A DNA stretch of 64,000 bases from an uncultured Candidatus Saccharibacteria bacterium (lineage in GTDB: Bacteria > Patescibacteriota > Minisyncoccia > Phycocordibacterales > UBA918): assembly GCA_964399295.1 (NCBI GenBank), contig CAYNQD010000001.1:86454-150453 (forward strand), written 5' to 3'. The notes beneath the pieces were generated by a model. The model was not told where the DNA came from. It saw only the letters and a program-made list of their open reading frames with translations, and made no database searches. Every line of letters starts with the position of its first letter. Position 1 is the stretch's first letter. Shown here piece after piece: positions 19,644 to 49,463 of this stretch. The position numbers and the translations under genes were made by a program.

Positions 19644-20531
19644 CTATGCCACAAAACCACCAACTCTATACAAAGCACTCTCATTAGCTTTCATGTAAGC
19701 GATTTGCAAATTGTTGTTTTTAGCAAAATCGCTGATGGCCTCCGTGTTTAAAAGCAGGGCGGTGGTGGCAGAAGCGTCGGCGTCGCAGGCGTTGTCGCTC
19801 TTGGTAAATACTCCGTCGATTTCTAGTTCGGCATCCTTATCTTTGCCGACTATGTGGTGGTATTTTTTGTTGTTGACCACCCAGCGTCTTTTGTGCGGGC
19901 TGGAGGCGGCAAAACCTTGATTTAAAATAGTGGTCGTACCTATGTACTCGTTGGCCTGTATGGGATGTTCAAGATAAATGGTTATCGACTCTCCATTGTC
20001 ACTGGTGGCGTACATGTCACCGCCGCCATTTATTAGGAAGTAATTTAGATCATAAGTATTTTGCAGTTCTTGCGCCAATAAATCAATCAAGTAACCTTTG
20101 CCAAAACCACCAAGATCAATCTTGCCGGATTTCAAAGTGATTGCTTCACTGGAGATATCTAAATCCGTCAGTGGGTCGGGGTCGGTGAAAATTATTTCTT
20201 TGGGTTTGAAGGAGTAGTCTTTGCCGTAGCCTCGACTTTCTAAGATTTCACCAATCAGCAAATTAAACAAACCTCCGGTTTTTGAATAGAGAGCTTGCCC
20301 GCGTTTTAAAATATCCACGGTCATGGCGTCGGGATTATTTAATTTGCCGGTGTTGTTGATCTGGCTGATGAGGGAAGTGGTTTTAAAGCGTGAGTAGCGG
20401 TTTTCAAAGTCGTAGATAATAGAACGCAGGCCGTCTACGACGGCCTGCGTTCTTGCTTCTGAAATTTCCGCAAAAACTTCAATCCACCAGACGGTGCCAA
20501 GGGCGTTGATGGCGGGAAGAAGAGTGGACAT
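19644..20531 (-). CDS. apbE: FAD:protein FMN transferase (ApbE family)
   Basis: 295 aa. GGFGKGYLIDL resembles ApbE GGIAKGYAVD. Metal/FAD-binding C-terminal acidic residues. Confidence 0.7.
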   Translation of the reverse strand: MSTLLPAINALGTVWWIEVFAEISEARTQAVVDGLRSIIYDFENRYSRFKTTSLISQINNTGKLNNPDAMTVDILKRGQALYSKTGGLFNLLIGEILESRGYGKDYSFKPKEIIFTDPDPLTDLDISSEAITLKSGKIDLGGFGKGYLIDLLAQELQNTYDLNYFLINGGGDMYATSDNGESITIYLEHPIQANEYIGTTTILNQGFAASSPHKRRWVVNNKKYHHIVGKDKDAELEIDGVFTKSDNACDADASATTALLLNTEAISDFAKNNNLQIAYMKANESALYRVGGFVA

Positions 20532-32230: not shown

Positions 32231-33029
32231 TCAGATGGACAAGTCAAAGCTTCGGACCAAGCGCAAGCCGAGCAGATTCTTTGTCGAAAACGAATACGTG
32301 CATGGCGGATATGTAGCCATACTTCCTAACGCATGCTCAAGAATCTATTACGTTCTCTCGGTCCATTGTAATAACGAAACACAAGTGGCATTCCCGAGCA
32401 TCACGACTATTCAAGAGATGTCAGGCTGTACCAATCGCAACACGACCATGAAGGCTCTCTCCATACTTGAGTCGTATGGCATCATCGGAATCCTCAAGAC
32501 CAAAGGATTCAATATGGTGAATGTGTACGCCTTTCAAGCCACTCGATACTGGAAACCGATCCCTGAATGGAAAGAAAGGATGGAGAAATACAGAAACAAA
32601 TCGCAGTATCAATTCACCCCACATCGTAGTAACAAAAAGACCGACTATCGCAGTGACAGGGATGATACCCTAACTAACCTAAGTGATAACTCTCCTAATA
32701 CTATAACTAGCATCGGAGATGTCTTAAGAAAAATGCAGTTGCAGGGACCCGATTCGGTTGCTATTCAGGAGCCTTCTGGGCATAGTGTCGTCGGTCCAGC
32801 TAAGCATGAACTTTTACCCGTAATAACGGGTAATTTACGGGAACATCGTAATAACACCAGTGATACTACGATAGACCAAGAAAGCACCGTTAATAAACGG
32901 GAAGAAACGGTGGACACAGTCGAAAGTGCACCATTTATAAATGGAGAAAAATGGACTAAGGAAGATGAGGGCATTGGTCTGATGGACATCAACAATGAAG
33001 ACATCGGGCCAGGAAACGCAACATTATAA
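32181..33029 (+). CDS. Putative winged-helix DNA-binding protein (replication initiator/regulator of mobile element)
   Basis: HGGYVAILPNACSRIYYVLSVHCNNETQVAFPSITTIQEMSGCTNRNTTMKALSILESYGIIG resembles wHTH replication-initiator/regulator N-termini. Likely start at 32181 (MALNANQ). Confidence 0.3.
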   Translation: MALNANQKNANLKKQIDQMDKSKLRTKRKPSRFFVENEYVHGGYVAILPNACSRIYYVLSVHCNNETQVAFPSITTIQEMSGCTNRNTTMKALSILESYGIIGILKTKGFNMVNVYAFQATRYWKPIPEWKERMEKYRNKSQYQFTPHRSNKKTDYRSDRDDTLTNLSDNSPNTITSIGDVLRKMQLQGPDSVAIQEPSGHSVVGPAKHELLPVITGNLREHRNNTSDTTIDQESTVNKREETVDTVESAPFINGEKWTKEDEGIGLMDINNEDIGPGNATL

Positions 33030-33033
33030 AACT

Positions 33034-34707
33034 ATGAATAAAACACCACCAATCAAATACTTCCTCTACGCCCGCAAGTCGAGCGAAGCGGAAGACAGAC
33101 AGGCGGCATCCATCGATGCCCAAAAAGACGAGCTCCTGAAGATTGCCAAAGAGCAGGGCTTGGCAATCGTAGACGTTCTTGAGGAATCGCAATCGGCCAA
33201 GAAGCCAGGCAGACCAATCTTCAACAAAATGCTCGAACGAATTTACAAGGGCGAGGCCAACGGCATCATCTGCTGGAAATTGGATCGTCTCGCTCGCAAT
33301 CCGGTAGACGGCGGACAGATAAGCTGGATGCTCCAGCAAAGCGCCATCGCAGAGATCATCACCTTCGGCCGAACCTACTATCCGACCGACAACGTCCTCA
33401 TGATGCAAGTTGAACTTGGCATGGCCAACCAATATATTCGAGACTTATCAGTGAATGTAAAAAGAGGCTTGGCCAAGAAAGTCCGAGAAGGTTGGCTCCC
33501 GAGCATGTGTCCCGTCGGCTACATGAGCACTCCTGACAGAGAAAAGGGATTTAAGACTATCACCAAAGACCCCGACCGCTTTCCAATCGTGCGGCGCATC
33601 TTTGACCTCATGCTCACCGGCAACTACACGGTCCAACAGATATGGAATATCTCACGCAAAGAACTCAATCTCACCACTTTCAAACGCCGAAGCCTCGGCG
33701 GCAAACATCTCTCAAAGAGCGGCATGTATGCGCTCCTGAGCAATCCCTTTTACTACGGTTGGTTTGAGTATCCGTACAAAAGCGGAGAATGGCACAAAGG
33801 CTCACATGAGCCGATGATCACCGAAGACGAATTCAACAAGGTCCAGCAATACATGGGCAGAAAGAACAGACCGTCGCTCGCCAAGAACCTCAACTTCGCA
33901 TTTACCGGCCTCATGCATTGCGGCACCTGCGGTTGCGGCATCACCGCCCAAGCGAAAGTAAAGCGATGTAAGAATGGCAATGTCCACCACTACGTCTACT
34001 ACAATTGCACCAAGAAGAAAGTAGATGTGAAGTGTCCCGAGCAATGTATCGAGCTCAAGAACCTCGAACTGGATATCAAAGGCAAACTCAGCGAAATCAC
34101 CATTTCAGAGCGATTCAAGGATTGGGCGATCAAGCATCTGCATGAACTTCGCAAGACCGAGGCTGATAGCGACTCGGCGGTACTCAAAGGCAAGAACAAA
34201 GAGCTTGAGGAAATCACCAAGAAACTGCAATCGCTCACCCTCAATTTCACCTCGCCGGCCAATCAGGAGCGCACTCTCATTTCAGACGAGGAGTACCAGA
34301 ATTTGAAGATGGGCATGGTCCGAAGAAAGCTCAAGCTCGAAGACGAGCTCAAGGTGCAGAACAAGGAGATCTTGGAATGGGTGGAGCTGTCGGAACGGAC
34401 CTTTGACTTTGCCTGCTACGCCCACATCTGGTTTGAAAAAGGCGATGAAAAGACCAAGCGAGCCATCCTTTCATGCCTTGGCTCGAACCTCACTCTAAAG
34501 GGCAAAAAAGTCTTTGTAAATTACCATTCTTTCGTGAAGACACTCATAAAAAGTCGTCAGGCGGTTGAAGACGAATTAGAGAAGGTTAGAACCTCTAAAG
34601 TATCAAGCAATAAAAGACAAAACCCTACAAATTGTGAGGTTTCGTCACTAGGGCTCCCCGTCTCGAGTTGGGGACTTTTGCCGCCTTGCCCCGCAATGCT
34701 TTTTTGA
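33034..34707 (+). CDS. Large serine recombinase (resolvase/invertase N-domain plus recombinase domain plus Zn-ribbon)
   Basis: YFLYARKSSEAEDRQAASIDAQKDEL carries the catalytic Ser of Y-x-R-x-S. Cys cluster CGTCGCGITAQ...CTKKKVDVKCPEQC and coiled-coil C-terminus. The track ORF starts 32995, but internal Met 33034 is likely. Confidence 0.8.
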   Translation: MNKTPPIKYFLYARKSSEAEDRQAASIDAQKDELLKIAKEQGLAIVDVLEESQSAKKPGRPIFNKMLERIYKGEANGIICWKLDRLARNPVDGGQISWMLQQSAIAEIITFGRTYYPTDNVLMMQVELGMANQYIRDLSVNVKRGLAKKVREGWLPSMCPVGYMSTPDREKGFKTITKDPDRFPIVRRIFDLMLTGNYTVQQIWNISRKELNLTTFKRRSLGGKHLSKSGMYALLSNPFYYGWFEYPYKSGEWHKGSHEPMITEDEFNKVQQYMGRKNRPSLAKNLNFAFTGLMHCGTCGCGITAQAKVKRCKNGNVHHYVYYNCTKKKVDVKCPEQCIELKNLELDIKGKLSEITISERFKDWAIKHLHELRKTEADSDSAVLKGKNKELEEITKKLQSLTLNFTSPANQERTLISDEEYQNLKMGMVRRKLKLEDELKVQNKEILEWVELSERTFDFACYAHIWFEKGDEKTKRAILSCLGSNLTLKGKKVFVNYHSFVKTLIKSRQAVEDELEKVRTSKVSSNKRQNPTNCEVSSLGLPVSSWGLLPPCPAMLF

Positions 34708-39673: not shown

Positions 39674-40666
39674 ATGGCGAAACAAAAATTTACATTCATT
39701 GATCTATTTGCAGGAATTGGCGGTATTAGAATTGCATTTGATAATGTTGGCGGTAAGTGCGTTTTTACTTCTGAGATTGATGAGCAATGTCAGAAGATGT
39801 ATGAAAATTATTTTGGTGACAAGCCACACGGCGATATAACTAAAATTGATGCAAAGGATATTCCCGATCACGATATTCTAACTGGCGGTTTCCCTTGTCA
39901 GGCTTTCAGTATCATCGGTGGGATGAAGGGTTTTGCGGATACTAGAGGAACGCTTTTCTTCGATGTTGAGAGGATATTAAAAGAGAAGCGACCAAAAGCA
40001 TTTCTACTAGAGAATGTAAGAAATTTGACTGTGCACGATGGGGGTAGAACTTTTCAAACCATAAAAGATAGACTGCTCGATTTGGGTTATTTTGTGCACT
40101 ATAAAGTTCTTAACGGACTGGATTTTGGGGTTCCTCAAAAAAGAGAGCGAATAATGATTGTTGGTTTTGAAAAAAATTATCCCTTTGTCTTTCCTGATGG
40201 TTCTAAAGTGAAGAAAAAGTTATTAACTGATATTCTTGAAGACGAAAGTACGATTGACCCTAAGCACTTTGTCAGTGATTACGTTAAGCAAAACTTGCAA
40301 CAAAAGTTAATCGACCAAAATAAGCAGAGACCTGATTATCCAACTATTTGGCACGAAAATAAGTCAGGCAATATTGGTATTCACGAGTTTTCTTGTGCTT
40401 TGAGGGCTGGGGGTTCTTATAATTATTTGCTAGTTAATGGAACCCGAAGACCAACTCCTAGAGAGATGTTTCGGTTACAAGGTTTTCCAGATAATTACCC
40501 TATAATTGTTCCTTTAACCCAAGCTAGAAAGCAGGCTGGGAACGCTGTGGTTGTGCCAAAAATTCAAGCTGTTGCTGAAGCAATGATTGAAGCAATGTCA
40601 AAGAAACCTATTTCTTCATTAGATCAAGATGAAGTTTCCAATGTTGTCTTGGAGTTTAGTAAGTAA
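39674..40666 (+). CDS. DNA cytosine-5 methyltransferase
   Basis: FAGIGG (motif I), GFPCQAFS (motif IV, catalytic Cys), ENVRNL (motif VI), VPQKRER (motif VIII). 330 aa. Confidence 0.85.
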   Translation: MAKQKFTFIDLFAGIGGIRIAFDNVGGKCVFTSEIDEQCQKMYENYFGDKPHGDITKIDAKDIPDHDILTGGFPCQAFSIIGGMKGFADTRGTLFFDVERILKEKRPKAFLLENVRNLTVHDGGRTFQTIKDRLLDLGYFVHYKVLNGLDFGVPQKRERIMIVGFEKNYPFVFPDGSKVKKKLLTDILEDESTIDPKHFVSDYVKQNLQQKLIDQNKQRPDYPTIWHENKSGNIGIHEFSCALRAGGSYNYLLVNGTRRPTPREMFRLQGFPDNYPIIVPLTQARKQAGNAVVVPKIQAVAEAMIEAMSKKPISSLDQDEVSNVVLEFSK

Positions 40667-40679
40667 TAATTAATGAATT

Positions 40680-41723
40680 ATGCCCGAAGAGAAAAAAGCA
40701 CTTGATAGTTTGATTAAAAAGTCTAGAGTGCACTTTTACAAGCCAATTCAGATTGCAGAAATTCTGCATCATAAAAGGAATGGAGCCGACATCGAACTCT
40801 CGGATCTTGAACAGTATCGTAATATATCCAAAAGATGGCGAGACGAGGTCTCAACTCGACTAATCGGACGAAGAAGCACATCTAGTCAAAAGTATCAGGA
40901 TAATCTTTTTGAGAATAACGCTATTCCGCCAAACATCTTGGCGAAATTAGGTAGTGTAAATCAAGAAAGCGCAGGTGGCGTAGAAGCATATATTTACTAT
41001 ACGATGAAGGAGAAATTCTCAGAATTACATTCTGTTGCCACCTACATTGGAACTGCAACACCTGAGACATTTGACTTAGATGAAGTAGTAAATATTTTCA
41101 CAAGAACTGCAGGTTTAAAAAGAAGTATTGATAAGGTTTATGAAATCGCTGTTTATGCCTTGTTTGCGACTATTGTTAGGGCGTTGCGTGCAGAAATTAC
41201 GCTTGCTATTAAGAATGAGGACGAAGAAATCTTAGCTGACTTTAATACGTTTATAAAAAATGTTTTAGGGATTTCAGCAAACCAGACCCAGCTTACTGTA
41301 CCAGCTAACTTATATCGAGTAGGTGCTACAAATGCAGCAGATAGAGGCTTAGATATGTGGTCAAATTTTGGTCCTGTAGTGCAGGTTAAACACCTTACAA
41401 TCACTCCTGAAACTGTTGAGGATATAGCTGAGGGAATTGCGGCTGATAAAATAGTAATCGTCTGTCTTGATGCAGAAAGAGAAGCTATAGCGGTATTGTT
41501 GGCACAGGTTGGATGGGGTGAAAGAATTCAAGGTATCATAACTCTAAGTGATCTTCGAGAGTGGTATTTACTTTGTATGAGCGAAAAATACCGAGAAAAA
41601 TTAGGAGTTGCATTGCTTAGCGACTTACGAAGGGAGTTTGCAAATGAATTTCCTTCTGGAGCTGAATTAAACCCTTTTATTGCTGAAAGAAACTACCAGC
41701 AATCTTTCCCTGTAGGTTGGTAA
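40680..41723 (+). CDS. Putative type II restriction endonuclease (cognate of C5-MTase)
   Basis: 347-aa ORF 14 nt downstream of Dcm in the same orientation. No family-level motif recognised. Call is by operon context only. Confidence 0.35.
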   Translation: MPEEKKALDSLIKKSRVHFYKPIQIAEILHHKRNGADIELSDLEQYRNISKRWRDEVSTRLIGRRSTSSQKYQDNLFENNAIPPNILAKLGSVNQESAGGVEAYIYYTMKEKFSELHSVATYIGTATPETFDLDEVVNIFTRTAGLKRSIDKVYEIAVYALFATIVRALRAEITLAIKNEDEEILADFNTFIKNVLGISANQTQLTVPANLYRVGATNAADRGLDMWSNFGPVVQVKHLTITPETVEDIAEGIAADKIVIVCLDAEREAIAVLLAQVGWGERIQGIITLSDLREWYLLCMSEKYREKLGVALLSDLRREFANEFPSGAELNPFIAERNYQQSFPVGW

Positions 41724-41731
41724 GTTAAGTT

Positions 41732-43306
41732 ATGAAAGCAATAGTACTAGCTCGTGTATCTACTGAAGAACAACGTGAAGCTGGTAACTCATTGCCAGCA
41801 CAACAAGCGAGACTTATCTCTTACATTGAGAAATCATTCAGTAAGACAAACAATCAAAAATTAGTGCTCGAAAAAGAGTTCGTTTTTGACGAGAGTGCCT
41901 ATAAAGAGCATCGAAAAGAGTTTAATAAAATAACCGAGTACATTGAAGGTTTTAAAGAAACTGTAGCTCTTTGCTGTGATAAAGTTGACCGACTATCGAG
42001 AGACTTTTTAATCGGTCTGCCTGTGTTAGAGAGGTTGAGACGAGATGGAAAGATTGAGCTTCACTTTCCATCAGATAACTTAGTTCTACACCAAAATTCG
42101 CCTGCCACAGACCTTTTCCACTACAACATCGCCCTTGCTCTAGCCCAGTACTATTCAAACGCCATCAGTGATAATACTAAAAGAGCACTTGAACAAAAGC
42201 GAAGAAATGGAGAATGGACTGGTAAGGTACGTATAGGTTATTTGAACGTGTCGCTTGATGCTGAAAAACGCCTTCGAAAAGATATAATCATAGATCCGTT
42301 TAGAGGACCGCTTATTCAGAAGTTGTTTGAGCTGTATGCAACAGGCAACCATTCACTTGAAAGCGTTCGCTCCGAAATCATTAAACTTGGTTTGAGAAGT
42401 CTTGATGAAAATAAGCCTTCCAAAAGTAATATCGATCTAATTCTCAATGATCCTTTTTACTGTGGTATTGCTGTGTCGAAAAAGTACGGTAAGTTTGCTC
42501 ATCGCTATCCGAAACTAATTTCGAAAGAGCTTTTTGACCGATGCCAAGAAGTGCGAACTAAGAGAACCAATAACCGAAATAAGGTAGTCTCAAAGGATTT
42601 CATCTTCAAAGGGATGCTTAAATGTGCTAATTGTGGCTGTTCGATGAGTGCTGAAACGAAAGTAAAACCGAGTGGCAAATCCTATACGTATTATTCTTGC
42701 ACGAATGCCAAAAAAACCTGCAAAAAACAATACGTTACTGAGCAAGACCTCCTAAAGCCCATCTGGGACGTACTGGGACGTTTCGGAACGATTTCAGAGC
42801 AGGTACAGGCTGATCTAGTATCTGAGCTAAGAAAGACCACAGAAGCCGAAATTGAGTTCCATAAGGCACAATTAAACCGTATCCGAAATGAATACGAAGA
42901 ACTTAAGAAGAAGGACGATCGTTTGCTGGATGCTTATCTAGACCAGAGTATTACTAAAGATGTCTATGACAAAAAACATCAAGACTATGCTGACAAGCTC
43001 CAGCTCCTTGAGATAGAATTATCAGAGTACCGAAAAGCTGACTACGACTACCAAACAACCGTTGCTACAGTCATATCTTTGGCACGAAGAGCACAAGCCA
43101 TCTTCGATGGTTGTTCTGAAGTTGCTGAAAAGAGAGCGTTTTTGAATTTGATACTTCAGAACCCGACCGTAAACGGAAAAAAGCTAGATTTTACACTAGC
43201 TTCTCCGTTTAATTTGGTCCTTGATTTAGCTGACGTCTCTTCTGGCTCCGCAGGTAGGATTCGAACCTACGACCAATCGGTTAACAGCCGATTGCTCTAC
43301 CGCTGA
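41732..43306 (+). CDS. Large serine recombinase (second copy); 3' end overlaps tRNA-Asn
   Basis: MKAIVLARVSTEEQREAGNSLPAQQ resolvase motif with catalytic Ser. Cys cluster CANCGCSMSAETK...CTNAKKTCKKQ and coiled-coil. The last about 21 codons are read through the tRNA gene on the opposite strand. Confidence 0.8.
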   Translation: MKAIVLARVSTEEQREAGNSLPAQQARLISYIEKSFSKTNNQKLVLEKEFVFDESAYKEHRKEFNKITEYIEGFKETVALCCDKVDRLSRDFLIGLPVLERLRRDGKIELHFPSDNLVLHQNSPATDLFHYNIALALAQYYSNAISDNTKRALEQKRRNGEWTGKVRIGYLNVSLDAEKRLRKDIIIDPFRGPLIQKLFELYATGNHSLESVRSEIIKLGLRSLDENKPSKSNIDLILNDPFYCGIAVSKKYGKFAHRYPKLISKELFDRCQEVRTKRTNNRNKVVSKDFIFKGMLKCANCGCSMSAETKVKPSGKSYTYYSCTNAKKTCKKQYVTEQDLLKPIWDVLGRFGTISEQVQADLVSELRKTTEAEIEFHKAQLNRIRNEYEELKKKDDRLLDAYLDQSITKDVYDKKHQDYADKLQLLEIELSEYRKADYDYQTTVATVISLARRAQAIFDGCSEVAEKRAFLNLILQNPTVNGKKLDFTLASPFNLVLDLADVSSGSAGRIRTYDQSVNSRLLYR

Positions 43307-43317
43307 GCTACTGCGGA
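43243..43317 (-). tRNA. tRNA-Asn (anticodon GUU) with encoded CCA
   Basis: Minus-strand UCCGCAGUAGCUCAGCGGUAGAGCAAUCGGCUGUUAACCGAUUGGUCGUAGGUUCGAAUCCUACCUGCGGAGCCA. The 7-bp acceptor, D arm GCUC/GAGC, anticodon stem AUCGG/CCGAU with loop CUGUUAA, and T-arm GUAGG-UUCGAAU-CCUAC all form. Confidence 0.85.
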
Positions 43318-43478
43318 ATGTTTCTCTATTTCGTTTGTTTTGTTCTTGAACTTGAAGCTGATTAATTTGCTGATTCCTAATCAATCTAACCAATTCAGTC
43401 CAAGTGCTTGTATTGTACAGAAAAAAAATGATTATTCAACCTTTTCTGGTGGCTGTTTTGAAGGTTTGGTGTTGGTGG

Positions 43479-43539
43479 GGACAAATTGGCCATAAGGGGG
43501 CGGCAACGTAGTTGCCGCCCCCTTATGGCCAATTTGTCC
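43479..43539. repeat. Perfect 29-bp inverted repeat with 3-nt spacer
   Basis: ggacaaattggccataagggggcggcaac-gta-gttgccgcccccttatggccaatttgtcc. The arms are exact reverse complements. Confidence 0.8.
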
Positions 43540-43632
43540 TGTGCAAAACTCCAAAAAAACCAACAAAACAAAGAAAGTTTAATTTGTCCAAAAAGATAGT
43601 ATAATTAGGGAGTTATAAGTTAAAGATTTTCT

Positions 43633-43932
43633 ATGCTTACACTTTATTACAAACCAACTTGTCAATTTTGTCGGCGAGTGCTAGCTGTGATTGATCGTTT
43701 GGAACTGGAGGTGGAAATGAAGGATGTTACCGAGTCGGAAGTAGAGGCCGATTTAGTTGCTAGAGCGGGAAAAATGCAGGTCCCTTACTTAGTAGATACT
43801 GAAATCGGAATTGAAATGTTTGAATCAGATCTAATTGTCGCTCACTTACAGACCAATTATGGAAAATCATCAATTCCGGCTCGTCCGCGCGTTCATATCA
43901 GCGACAGCACCTGCGTTTCTTGCGAGGGATAG
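43633..43932 (+). CDS. Glutaredoxin-like thioredoxin-fold protein
   Basis: LTLYYKPTCQFCRRV has CxxC in a glutaredoxin-like N-terminal context. 99 aa. Confidence 0.45.
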   Translation: MLTLYYKPTCQFCRRVLAVIDRLELEVEMKDVTESEVEADLVARAGKMQVPYLVDTEIGIEMFESDLIVAHLQTNYGKSSIPARPRVHISDSTCVSCEG

Positions 43933-43935
43933 TTT

Positions 43936-44163
43936 ATGTACGTTAAGGTTCGGGTGATACCGAAAGCAAAGAAGGAAACAATGAAAAAGATTGCCGACCA
44001 GACCTTTGAAATGACGGTAAAACAGCCTGCTGAAAGAAATTTGGCCAATAATCGCGTAAGAGAACTGTTGGCTAATGAATATAATATAGACAGCAAAGCG
44101 GTTAGAATTGTTTCCGGTCATCATTCAGGCAGTAAAATATTTGACGTAAAAATTGATTATTAG
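43936..44163 (+). CDS. DUF167/YggU (UPF0235) family protein
   Basis: 75 aa. VKVIPKAKKE ... NNRVRELLANEYNIDSKAVRIVSGHHSGSKIFDV resembles YggU. Confidence 0.45.
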   Translation: MYVKVRVIPKAKKETMKKIADQTFEMTVKQPAERNLANNRVRELLANEYNIDSKAVRIVSGHHSGSKIFDVKIDY

Positions 44164-44181
44164 AAAGATAAGTCTAAAAAT

Positions 44182-44547
44182 ATGTCATTCAATAATATTA
44201 TTTTCAAAAACACTGACGCTAATGTTAAAAAAAGTTTACATGATTTGGTTGAACAAAAACTAACTTCACTGGAGAAATATGTTGGTGATGAAACCGATGT
44301 GAAATGTGAGGTTGAATTTGAAAAAGTTGCTCCGCATAATTCTGGTGATATTTATCGGGTGGAATTAAATCTTTGGGTGGCCGGAAAAATGTATCGCGCT
44401 GAGTCTACCAAATCCACTTATGAGGCAGCTATAGATTTGGTGCGCGACGAACTAGATCGAGATTTGAGCAAAAGTCACGACAAACGCCATACCCTAGAGA
44501 GAAAAGGAGGTAGAGAAATCAAGGAAGCGCTTCGGTCTATAGAATAA
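44182..44547 (+). CDS. hpf: Ribosome hibernation-promoting factor / RaiA (YfiA) family
   Basis: 121 aa with the beta-alpha-beta-beta-beta-alpha size and pattern. NIIFKNTDANVKKSLHDLVEQKL is a typical start. Confidence 0.55.
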   Translation: MSFNNIIFKNTDANVKKSLHDLVEQKLTSLEKYVGDETDVKCEVEFEKVAPHNSGDIYRVELNLWVAGKMYRAESTKSTYEAAIDLVRDELDRDLSKSHDKRHTLERKGGREIKEALRSIE

Positions 44548-44549
44548 AA

Positions 44550-45404
44550 TCAGCGGAAACAGAGACTAAAATCAGTCTCTGTTTTTCCTTCCGGAACGAT
44601 GCGGGTAATTTGCAGCTTGTTGTTAATAATATCAGCGTGTTTGATTTTGTAGCGCTTTCCTTGATGAATAAAAAAAGTTTCAGGCCAGCCGTCAAAAGCG
44701 CGGATTTTTAGAAGTGCTTGGTAAGCTTCATTGCCGGATGGTAGATTGTAAGGGTTGATGGCAAGTTCGCCCATGTTTTTTTTGATTTTGGTACAAAAAG
44801 TAGCTTGCGAGTGGTCTTGGGTGGTGGGCGAAATTTCACCGGCCAGATAGCGAGGAATCAAATCTGCCAACATGGCTCCGCCTTGGTGCGCCATGGCCAC
44901 GTCTAATTCTTCGCCGGCAACCGGCCAGTTTTCCTCAGAAATTTGTATTGCCATCTGACTTAAAATGGGGCCGTGATCCAAATCTTCGTCCATGAGCATA
45001 AGGGTCACGCCGGTTTTTCTTTCGTCATTTAAAATCGCACTGCGAATCGGGCTGGCGCCGCGGAGTTTGGGAAGTAGAGAAGGGTGAACATTAATGGTTC
45101 CAAATTTTGGCAAATCCAAAAGCCAAGCCGGCAGGATTTTTCCGTAAGCGACAACAATAAATAAATCCCAAGCACTTTCGGTTAATTCTGGAACCAAACT
45201 TGCTTCTTTGAGGGTTTTTGGTTGAATGACGGGAATGTCATTATCCTGTCCCCAGATTTTTACCAGTGGGGGCGTGAGAATCTGTTTTCTTCCCACCGGC
45301 GCGTCGGGATTGGTGACAATTAAATTTGGTAAGATATTGGCTACTTTCAACTCATCCAGCACGATTGAAGCTATTTTAGGCGTGCCAAAGAAAGCTATTT
45401 TCAT
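44550..45404 (-). CDS. fmt: Methionyl-tRNA formyltransferase
   Basis: MKIAFFGTPKIA start, HPSLLPKLRGASPI (SLLP active site), C-terminal domain. 4-nt overlap with def upstream. Confidence 0.8.
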   Translation of the reverse strand: MKIAFFGTPKIASIVLDELKVANILPNLIVTNPDAPVGRKQILTPPLVKIWGQDNDIPVIQPKTLKEASLVPELTESAWDLFIVVAYGKILPAWLLDLPKFGTINVHPSLLPKLRGASPIRSAILNDERKTGVTLMLMDEDLDHGPILSQMAIQISEENWPVAGEELDVAMAHQGGAMLADLIPRYLAGEISPTTQDHSQATFCTKIKKNMGELAINPYNLPSGNEAYQALLKIRAFDGWPETFFIHQGKRYKIKHADIINNKLQITRIVPEGKTETDFSLCFR

Positions 45405-47963: not shown

Positions 47964-49463
47964 CTAAAACTCATCTAAATATTCAATTTTGGCACCAAGT
48001 GAAGACAGTCTTTCTACTAATTTTTCATAACCGCGGTTGATGCTGTAGATGTTGCGTAAGACGCTGTGTCCGTTGGCCCCCAGCATGGCAATCAAGAGTA
48101 TGGTGGCGGGACGAAGGGCGGGCGGGCAGATGAGTTCAGTTGGTTTGAGTTCGGTGGGGCCGGTGATGTAGATGCGGTGCGGATCAGCCAAAACCGTGTC
48201 CGCTCCCAGCTTTTCCAGTTCGGTAAAATAAATGGCTCGCTTCTCATAAACCCAGTCGTGGATTAGGGTTTGGCCTTCCGCTTGAGTAGCGATAACGGCA
48301 AAAAAGGGAAGGTTGTCTATATTGAGTCCGGGATAAACAGAGGGGTGGATTTTTTCGTGCAAGGCGATTAGTTTTGATGGTTTGGTGGTGATATTGACTA
48401 ATTTTGTAAAATTATTATCAGATAAATAAACTTTAGATTTGGTGTACTTAAAACCCATTTTCTCCAGCTTTAAAAGCTCAAGTTCCAGAAATTCAATGGG
48501 GCAACGAGTGATGGTTATAGCTGAATTGGTGACAATAGCTGTCGCTAAAAAAAACATACTGTCGGTTGGGTCTTCCGACAAGGTGTAGGTAATGTTTTTA
48601 TTTATATCCGCCACTCCCGTGACTTTCAGTGTGGTGGTGCCGATACCTTCAATCTTAACTCCTAATAATTGGAGAAAAATACAAATTTCCTGCACCATGT
48701 AATTGGCGGAAGCGTACTTTATAACGGTGGTGGACGGAGTTCTGGCTGCCGCAAAAAGAGCATTTTCCGTAACGGTGTCGCCGGATTCATAAAGAATGAC
48801 TTCCTCCGGACTTTTATTAGTATGAATTATTTCATAACTATCATCAGTGGTTTTGATATCAACGCCAAAATGTTCCAGGGCGTAGAAATGCGGTCTGACA
48901 GTCCGGCTTCCGAGCTTGCAGCCGCCTGATTGCGGGAGATTAAATTTTGGTAAAAAATGAATCAGCGGCCCGATAAACATCACGATGCTGCGAGTACGCT
49001 TGGCGGCTTCAGTATCGATCTTTCTTAATTGGTACTGCTTGGGCGGGGTAATAACGACCGTGCTGTCTTTCCAGTCTACCTTGGCGCCGATACTCTCTAG
49101 GACTTCAATAATACGGTGCACTTCCTCAATTCGAGGCATGCGGTGCAGGGTGGTTGTGCCGCGATTGAGGATACTGGCGCAGAGCAAGCCCACAGCGCCA
49201 TTTTTGGAGGTGTTTGTCTCGATGGTGCCGCTCAGCTTTTTTTTGCCTTCAATCTCGACATTGACCGTCCCCAGGGAAAGGGTAATCAGGTTTTTGCCGA
49301 GGGCCTTGCTGATTTTTTTCAACATATCAGCGCTGATGTTTTGTCGGCCTGATTCCATGCGAGCAACGGCACTTTGAGTAGTGTTGATTTTTTTTGCCAA
49401 TTCAGCTTGCGTCAAGCCTTTGGTTTCGCGCATATCGGCGATGCGATGTCCAATATTTAACAT
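47964..49463 (-). CDS. murA: XRE-family HTH fused to UDP-N-acetylglucosamine 1-carboxyvinyltransferase (MurA)
   Basis: N-terminal about 65 aa LTQAELAKKINTTQSAVARMESGRQNIS (HTH_XRE). Remainder is EPSP-synthase fold with GGCKLGSRTVRPHFYALEHFG matching MurA GGCAIGARPVDLHI (catalytic Cys). Confidence 0.75.
   Translation of the reverse strand: MLNIGHRIADMRETKGLTQAELAKKINTTQSAVARMESGRQNISADMLKKISKALGKNLITLSLGTVNVEIEGKKKLSGTIETNTSKNGAVGLLCASILNRGTTTLHRMPRIEEVHRIIEVLESIGAKVDWKDSTVVITPPKQYQLRKIDTEAAKRTRSIVMFIGPLIHFLPKFNLPQSGGCKLGSRTVRPHFYALEHFGVDIKTTDDSYEIIHTNKSPEEVILYESGDTVTENALFAAARTPSTTVIKYASANYMVQEICIFLQLLGVKIEGIGTTTLKVTGVADINKNITYTLSEDPTDSMFFLATAIVTNSAITITRCPIEFLELELLKLEKMGFKYTKSKVYLSDNNFTKLVNITTKPSKLIALHEKIHPSVYPGLNIDNLPFFAVIATQAEGQTLIHDWVYEKRAIYFTELEKLGADTVLADPHRIYITGPTELKPTELICPPALRPATILLIAMLGANGHSVLRNIYSINRGYEKLVERLSSLGAKIEYLDEF

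Follow-up and report, generated by a model that had tools for sequence, protein, structure and literature searches.

A perfect palindrome with compensating arm changes between divergent tRNA-Asn and grx promoters in a clade of Paceibacteria

What is a perfect palindrome with 29-bp arms doing beside a tRNA gene, close to an island that carries a serine recombinase, and what keeps its arms complementary? A preliminary description of this DNA offered three candidates: an unoccupied att site with dyad symmetry, a palindromic operator, and an insulator or terminator guarding the tRNA. Here we weigh these and further readings against the structure of the palindrome and its counterparts at orthologous loci. 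The setting is bacteria with very small genomes, and the locus is suited to asking whether template switching perfects bacterial palindromes.

Results

Structure of the palindrome

An inverted-repeat search of the window (the whole 64-kb stretch of DNA analysed here) returns a perfect palindrome of 61 bp, with arms at 43479-43507 and 43511-43539 that are complementary at 29 of 29 positions around the loop GTA (Table 1). These coordinates are identical to those of the two exact 29-nt arms in the preliminary description, and the distances given there, 160 bp from the tRNA and 95 bp to the glutaredoxin-like gene, measure 161 nt and 93 nt. The left arm is composed of an AT-richer outer portion, GGACAAATTGGCCATAA, and a GC-rich inner core, GGGGGCGGCAAC.

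The palindrome is the longest inverted repeat of the window. The longest perfect stem in 20 shuffles of the 64 kb is 12 bp, which excludes a 29-bp stem by chance. Folded as single-stranded DNA, the palindrome reaches -39.5 kcal/mol (z = -11.9), and it also dominates the RNA fold of the region (z = -7.9). The same species was assembled independently in Logan (L149, from SRR16797988), and that sequence is identical to the window over 341 bp across the palindrome, which is therefore not an assembly artefact. For the palindrome, a search against Rfam at a permissive E-value reached no family threshold; it gave only generic hairpin matches to miRNA models, the best with 36.5 bits against a cut-off of 70.

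A replication origin, a terminus and a dif site were also considered and rejected, as the cumulative GC skew rises monotonically across the window.

The window holds a second perfect palindrome, with 15-bp arms, at 20421-20453 (AGAACGCAGGCCGTC-TAC-GACGGCCTGCGTTCT), whose centre reads C-GTA-G on the minus strand. It lies in frame inside an ApbE-family gene, where it encodes RTQAVVDGLRS, and it exceeds any stem found in the shuffles.

Table 1. Features around the palindrome in the window, and the hairpins found at orthologous loci
Feature	Position	Strand	Description
tRNA-Asn (GTT)	43243-43317	-	Rfam tRNA, 75 bits
tRNA-Asn promoter	43412-43439	-	-35 TTGAAT (43439-43434), 16-nt spacer, -10 TACAAT (43417-43412)
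Left flank	43440-43478	.	G/T-rich; on the minus strand it reads as A/C-rich sequence upstream of the tRNA promoter; conserved in relatives as GTTTTGARGGTTTRG
Left arm	43479-43507	.	GGACAAATTGGCCATAAGGGGGCGGCAAC; homologous to left arms and flanks of relatives
Loop	43508-43510	.	GTA closed by C:G (C-GTA-G), GNA-type triloop
Right arm	43511-43539	.	Complementary to the left arm at every position; same sequence in L149, L147 and L148
Right flank	43540-43577	.	A/C-rich, upstream of the grx promoter
grx-yggU-hpf promoter	43578-43605	+	-35-like TTTAAT (43578-43583), 16-nt spacer, TATAAT (43600-43605), TAG before TATAAT
grx-yggU-hpf operon	43633-44547	+	Glutaredoxin-like 43633-43932, YggU/DUF167 43936-44163, hibernation factor HPF 44182-44547
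Hairpin, window			29-bp stem, loop GTA
Hairpin, L017			22-bp stem, loop TTC
Hairpin, L007			20-bp stem with a 4-nt bulge, loop TTC
Hairpin, L002			13-bp stem, loop GAA
Hairpin, L010			25-bp stem, loop TTC
Hairpin, L150-156			20-bp stem, loop TTT
Hairpin, L159/160			20-bp stem, loop GAA
Hairpin, L161/162			21-bp stem with one G.T, loop TTC

Position between divergent promoters

The palindrome is located 39 nt from the -35 element of the tRNA-Asn promoter and 38 nt from the -35-like hexamer of the grx promoter. Both units are transcribed away from it, and neither should transcribe it. On the tRNA side, more than 30 orthologous loci share the motif TATTGTACAGAAA...ATTCAA; on the grx side, TAGTATAAT (43597-43605) is conserved across all orthologous loci. 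Small open reading frames overlap the palindrome on each strand (plus, 43340-43495; minus, 43395-43571); they were treated as spurious, since neither the sequence nor the length of the spacer is conserved in relatives.

Beyond the arms, the left flank is weakly mirror-symmetric to the right flank, with a score that none of 500 shuffles reaches in the window. The same symmetry is not significant in L017, L002, L007 or L010. The whole spacer might conceivably descend from the sequence upstream of the tRNA promoter, duplicated long ago in inverted orientation, an idea that we hold only weakly because the symmetry is significant in the window alone.

On the grx-sense strand, the spacer is persistently G-rich and contains G-runs (window 43440-43478, L002, L007, L017, L150, L027 and L014; for example, GGGGGGTGGAGGGAGGGGG in L007 and GGTGGTGGGTGGGGTG in L150), which, from their sequence, may be prone to form G-quadruplexes. 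Several short-spacer relatives that lack the hairpin, L027 and L014 among them, share this G-richness.

At the far end of the operon (44547-44584), hpf on the plus strand and fmt on the minus strand converge with 2 bp between their stop codons. The sole hairpin near this junction in the window has an 11-bp stem (44557-44584) and lies inside the coding end of fmt; the corresponding gap in relatives is 50-60 bp long and holds perfect terminator palindromes of 16-31 bp. Further along, 47964-49463 on the minus strand encodes a MurA-like protein (EPSP_synthase family) with an N-terminal XRE-type HTH domain (Pfam).

Distribution among relatives

Homologues of the Grx protein place the host in the Paceibacteria/Parcubacteria (CPR), and the divergent tRNA-Asn/grx pair is conserved across dozens of Paceibacteria contigs. 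At about 30 orthologous loci, only 36-60 nt separate the tRNA -35 element from the grx -10 element, and no notable hairpin is present. A single clade, defined by a rough tree and by Grx identities, has a hairpin at this site within a longer spacer, in eight variants (Table 1) whose Grx proteins are 63-80% identical to that of the window. The flanks of the hairpin are homologous within this clade, with GTTTTGARGGTTTRG on the left and AAAGAAAGTTTAAT, part of the grx promoter region, conserved on the right. The left arms are visibly related as well (CATAAGGGGGCGGCAAC, CATAAAGGCCCGCAAGC and ATAATGTGGGGCGGAAGC are examples). Within the clade, the hairpin has been lost twice, once by a clean deletion (L158) and once in the long-spacer type of L003, L004 and L142.

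Most relatives thus have the same neighbourhood without the palindrome. The preliminary description had named this pattern among those that would refute its reading, and an essential sequence-specific site is ruled out by it; by its absence from most relatives with the same gene pair, the palindrome is evidently dispensable.

The distance from the hairpin centre varies between 42 and 90 bp to the tRNA -35 element and between 45 and 127 bp to the grx -10 element. A fixed helical phasing to the promoters was rejected on account of this variation, which also argues against a finely tuned device.

The same spacing bears on the second candidate of the preliminary description, an operator, here taken as the site of a dimeric transcription factor that would co-regulate both promoters. 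The dyad symmetry and the location midway between the two promoters are what such an operator would have, but promoter spacing varies by tens of bp (40-80 bp), the arms of 13-29 bp far exceed a half-site, no regulator gene is conserved beside the hairpin and most relatives do without it. The arm sequence is, moreover, not conserved at orthologous sites: 11 of the 13 inner positions vary while complementarity is complete along the stem. We regard an operator as highly improbable.

A further hairpin is found in the same neighbourhood of L012, at a different place. It is a perfect 26-bp hairpin (121-176) with the loop TTGC (GCAA on the tRNA strand) and no U-tract, and it abuts the 3' end of tRNA-Asn, with one arm overlapping the acceptor end.

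Independence from the recombinase island

The island, to the left of the tRNA, encodes a large serine recombinase together with a C5 methyltransferase and a HaeII-type endonuclease. The ORF of the recombinase (41732-43306, plus strand) reaches 64 nt into tRNA-Asn, which is on the opposite strand, and ends there. Dyad symmetry, together with a distance of 173 nt from the end of the recombinase gene, gave the palindrome the appearance of an unoccupied or secondary att site for this enzyme. This reading fails because hairpin and recombinase occur independently across relatives. The hairpin is present without a recombinase at tRNA-Asn in L017 (whose left neighbours are, by sequence, housekeeping-type ORFs), L002, L007, L010, L150-156 and L159/160; the recombinase is present without the hairpin in L003, L016, L019, L064 and L158; the two occur together only in the window and L161.

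Other observations agree with this. The palindrome is situated 161 nt beyond the 5' end of tRNA-Asn and not at the island junction. A search for the half-site, as proposed in the preliminary description and allowing up to three mismatches, found no copy beyond the two arms in the 64-kb window, island included, so that no partner half-site is available there. A search for marks of the island ends or of att partners, namely a duplicated tRNA fragment or direct repeats, found none. Among relatives that lack the island, the other comparison proposed, several carry the hairpin, with changed arm sequence, and the sequence is likewise not conserved among loci with related recombinases. An att site is accordingly scarcely credible. 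The palindrome as a target of the HaeII-type restriction system of the island was also rejected, as it contains no RGCGCY site.

The last ~20 residues of the recombinase are encoded antisense to tRNA-Asn. Related recombinases are found at the same tRNA in many relatives (including L016, L003, L064, L158 and L161), which marks tRNA-Asn as a recurrent integration hotspot in the clade. Another large serine recombinase, distant from this one and sharing 26% identity with it, is encoded at 32995-34707 (plus strand), and the pair of C5 cytosine methyltransferase and HaeII-family restriction endonuclease (Pfam) occupies 39674-41723 (plus strand) of the island. The tRNA-Asn gene itself is split by a group I intron (Rfam RF00028, 56-76 bits) on the minus strand of L003 (1067-1320), L007 (1583-1883) and L010 (928-1251), and ARAGORN misses tRNA-Asn at these loci because of the intron. 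In L003 and L010, an unannotated ORF of 108-125 aa lies partly inside it.

The centre of the hairpin

The hairpin centre reads C-GNA-G on one strand in seven of the eight variants, and the exact heptamer GCGAAGC is present in six. The exception is the L150 lineage, which has a TTT/AAA loop instead of GNA. A GC-rich centre, such as this one, normally slows cruciform extrusion.

Extrusion of the promoter hairpins of phage N4 needs a C:G closing pair and a loop with 5' G and 3' A; it has been detected at sigma -0.035 and is gyrase-dependent in vivo (PMC4496689). Mini-hairpins of the GCGNAGC type have a far higher stability in DNA than in RNA (PMC13037366; PMC3201870). The palindrome of the window has the N4-type sequence features, namely perfect 29-bp arms, a 3-nt spacer and a C:G-closed loop with 5' G and 3' A.

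Compensated changes in the arms and inversion of the loop

With the eight variants aligned on the loop, we analysed covariation over their inner 13 bp. Changes on both sides affect 11 of these 13 pairs (30 cells), against a single cell changed on one side (G.U / G.T), and GC to CG transversions on the arms are fully compensated. The covariation score is 0.887, a value reached by none of 500 shuffles; slid controls give 0.065-0.164. All cells (100%) form standard pairs and none is unpaired, a figure that is partly a product of construction, as seven of the eight hairpins were found by a perfect-stem search. The two-sided changes at homologous positions, as read from the alignment, are not such a product.

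The closest comparison is provided by L159 and L161, which encode an identical Grx protein and have almost identical flanks. Their hairpins differ by an inverted loop (GAA in L159, TTC in L161), one compensated change from G-C to A-T, changed outer ends and one G.T. According to published work, template switching between the arms of inverted repeats makes the arms alike and inverts the spacer between them (PMC8604942; PMC7202029). Both traits are found in this pair, alongside the excess of double-sided over single-sided changes in the clade as a whole. We infer that template switching homogenises the arms.

At their outer ends, the stems differ in extent. The sequence GGGGATAA lies outside the stem in L002 and inside the stem in L017; the right arm therefore looks like a templated copy, or else L002 has lost the outer right arm. 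From such comparisons, the palindrome appears to grow and shrink at its outer ends, and the left side looks like the template. In contrast to flanks that can barely be aligned, a core of 25 nt together with the loop is identical in L007 and L017. Since the orientation of the loop differs among lineages, any activity of the hairpin would be strand-independent.

Contig breaks at the loop

Two Logan contigs of the same species, L147 and L148, start exactly at 43510 and 43511, the junction between loop and right arm. Their first 31-mers are 'A + right arm + T' and 'right arm + TG', respectively. By our own reasoning, a k = 31 assembly graph is expected to be unambiguous with one loop orientation and to branch at those 31-mers if both orientations coexist. 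The breaks thus suggest a flip-flop of the loop within populations, in which AACGTAGTT and AACTACGTT would alternate at the centre. The start of contig L157 also falls at the loop/arm junction of its hairpin or inside the right arm. As a practical caveat, such palindromes fragment metagenome assemblies.

Copy number and persistence

A dispersed palindromic repeat of the REP/BIME or MITE kind could have been inserted between the promoters by chance. L010 does carry the same 25-nt core at two sites 1 kb apart, and the window covers only ~11% of the ~594-kb genome. Against this, the 64-kb window and 560 kb of related loci contain no second arm and no second copy of the 161-bp module, and the position is orthologous across lineages with homologous flanks. 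A blastn-short search of these 560 kb with the arm, the palindrome and the 161-bp module matched same-species contigs only, apart from the promoter motif AAAGAAAGTTTAAT in long-spacer relatives. Exact scans of collections without the source genome gave no match to the palindrome centre in genome_contigs and none to a 20-nt half-arm in metagenome_contigs; in viral_contigs, neither the palindrome centre nor the L007/L017 core was matched. There is therefore no sign of a dispersed or phage-borne family in the sequence searched, and we consider a mobile repeat very unlikely.

A neutral origin deserves more weight. A GC core of the terminator type may have landed in a permissive spacer in the ancestor of the clade and have been kept there, with no benefit to the cell, only because hairpin-templated synthesis restores its perfection and alters its size. 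The sporadic distribution and absence from most relatives, the clean losses (L158 and the L003 type) with unchanged neighbouring genes, and the variable stem length and spacing are all compatible with such a relic, and the 15-bp palindrome in the ApbE-family gene (20421-20453) hints at a palindrome-making mutational process in this genome. Palindromes are prone to deletion, though, and this one is found at the same place in eight variants with 63-80% Grx identity; the identity of core and loop in L007 and L017, despite flanks that barely align, suggests purifying selection on the core. We consider neutral persistence rather unlikely, yet a serious rival.

Comparison with terminators of the clade

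The third candidate of the preliminary description was an insulator or terminator guarding the tRNA. Its terminator-like GC core stands: the palindrome is a GC-rich stem-loop, and its design, with a GC-rich core at the loop and AT-richer outer arms, is that of the real terminators of the clade, which form perfect palindromes of 14-31 bp at the convergent hpf/fmt junction in relatives. In L010, the 25-nt core of the spacer hairpin, AGCCGGAAAGC-TTC-GCTTTCCGGCT, is the exact reverse complement of the hpf/fmt terminator core 1 kb away. A terminator scan flags 43488-43530 with the tail AATTTGTCCT.

What does not stand is its role as a canonical intrinsic terminator, which is rejected on two counts. 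First, no U-tract follows the full stem, beyond which the plus strand reads TGTGCAAAAC and the minus strand CCACCAACAC; a weak AATTTGT is present only inside the outer arm. The U-tract is missing on either strand in every lineage, whereas A-tract/T-tract terminators are present in the same genomes. Second, the hairpin does not follow the 3' end of a transcription unit, being located between divergent promoters in all eight variants. An insulating role may still be hypothesised.

A broader form of this reading is a bidirectional barrier at the RNA level, in which a terminator-like hairpin or a long stem of the RNase III type would stop or cut read-through and pervasive transcripts that enter the spacer from either side. 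Examples of its targets would be transcripts of the recombinase operon that run antisense through tRNA-Asn to grx, and antisense transcripts from fmt-def-priA toward the tRNA promoter. Several features of the window fit these targets: no stem of at least 9 bp lies between the end of the recombinase ORF, inside the tRNA gene, and the palindrome, and hpf and fmt converge with a 2-bp gap. In the window and in L161 the hairpin, besides its place between the promoters, follows the recombinase ORF on the far side of the antisense tRNA. Pairing restricted to Watson-Crick pairs is, in addition, what function on both strands would require. On the other hand, both flanking units fire away from the hairpin, which has no gene 3' end ahead of it in L017, in L002 or in the other lineages; relatives that share the recombinase island do without it; and the conserved GCGAAGC centre has a much lower stability in RNA than in DNA (PMC13037366). 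We judge an RNA-level barrier to be unlikely on balance, though with a real chance of being correct that makes it a serious rival.

In L010, the promoter-spacer hairpin (1627-1679) and the hpf/fmt terminator (2663-2707) bracket grx-yggU-hpf with the same 25-nt core in opposite orientation.

Discussion

Perfection alone cannot tell an element acting at the DNA level from one acting at the RNA level, long perfect palindromes being the normal bidirectional terminators of this clade. We nevertheless think it likely that the palindrome is a DNA-level element whose arms are homogenised. This is favoured because pairing by Watson-Crick pairs only, together with free orientation of the loop, fits a property of the duplex or of either strand and not of one RNA strand; because the GCGAAGC or C-GTA-G centre is a DNA mini-hairpin motif with the features of N4 extrusion; because homogenised arms and spacer inversion match the known pattern of template switching; and because a spacer between divergent promoters is expected to concentrate negative supercoiling.

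The mechanism that we propose starts from the GC-rich core, which, capped by a C:G-closed GNA triloop (GCGAAGC in most variants, C-GTA-G in the window), would form a stable nucleating centre. Intramolecular template switching during DNA synthesis would copy one arm onto the other. Such copying would keep the arms Watson-Crick perfect during drift, resize the outer ends (13-29 bp) and flip the loop.

Transcription concentrates negative supercoiling between divergent promoters, as described by the twin-domain model. At this locus, the divergent promoters, one of them a tRNA promoter, would pump negative supercoiling into the spacer and so drive what we take as the most likely activity of the palindrome, extrusion of a cruciform independently of its orientation. 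Extrusion would absorb ~6 helical turns and thereby buffer or insulate the two promoters. Both extrusion in vivo and any regulatory effect are put forward here as what the structure and position would allow. A function of the palindrome in supercoiling or as a cruciform is plausible, but we are doubtful about it. Taken as a whole, a clade-inherited DNA hairpin or cruciform element between back-to-back promoters is our best explanation, and a tentative one, for which we would claim somewhat less than an even chance.

A bolder version would make the locus a supercoil-sensing cruciform switch. Negative supercoiling accumulated by divergent firing of the tRNA-Asn and grx-yggU-hpf units would extrude the GNA-capped hairpins, relax the spacer and tune or uncouple the promoters; growth-related tRNA expression would thus be linked to ribosome hibernation without a protein, by a device that perfects itself through template switching and flips its loop in populations. 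A protein-free link of this kind, if real, would suit a regulator-poor, ultra-small bacterium. We regard such a switch as improbable.

If the DNA-level reading is correct, the locus would be a natural chromosomal case of concerted evolution of palindrome arms over long divergence, it would show an N4-like, extrusion-prone, GNA-capped centre in use outside phages, and it would place a structural DNA element where divergent transcription concentrates negative supercoiling. If the palindrome is instead only a weak terminator or a relic without function, there is nothing unusual in it; the att-site idea is dropped either way. The palindrome is chiefly of interest as a clean case, open to comparison across lineages, of concerted evolution.

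Among known systems, Rho-independent bidirectional terminators share with the palindrome a perfect GC-cored stem-loop, a short loop and AT-richer outer arms, and the L010 core is identical to that of a real one. Unlike them, it has no A-tract or U-tract, its stem is 2-3 times the usual length, and it is situated between divergent promoters and not after a gene end. REP/BIME elements and serine-recombinase att sites are likewise palindromic or dyad-symmetric intergenic DNA, but the palindrome is single-copy as searched, lacks sequence conservation and occurs independently of the recombinase.

The hotspots of template switching at quasipalindromes resemble it in having arms that stay complementary though they diverge, with compensated multi-nucleotide changes and loop inversion between near-identical strains. 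The published cases, from E. coli, yeast and primates, are accounts of mutational events, whereas here the process is deduced by comparison, at one orthologous site and over long divergence. With the N4 promoter hairpins and the GCGNAGC mini-hairpins, the palindrome shares a C:G-closed GNA triloop on a GC stem and a location in a promoter region. The N4 hairpins have stems of 5-7 bp and are recognised as promoters by the phage RNA polymerase; the stems described here are 13-29 bp long, lie 40-90 bp upstream of ordinary sigma-70-type promoters with no phage polymerase, and are predicted to extrude.
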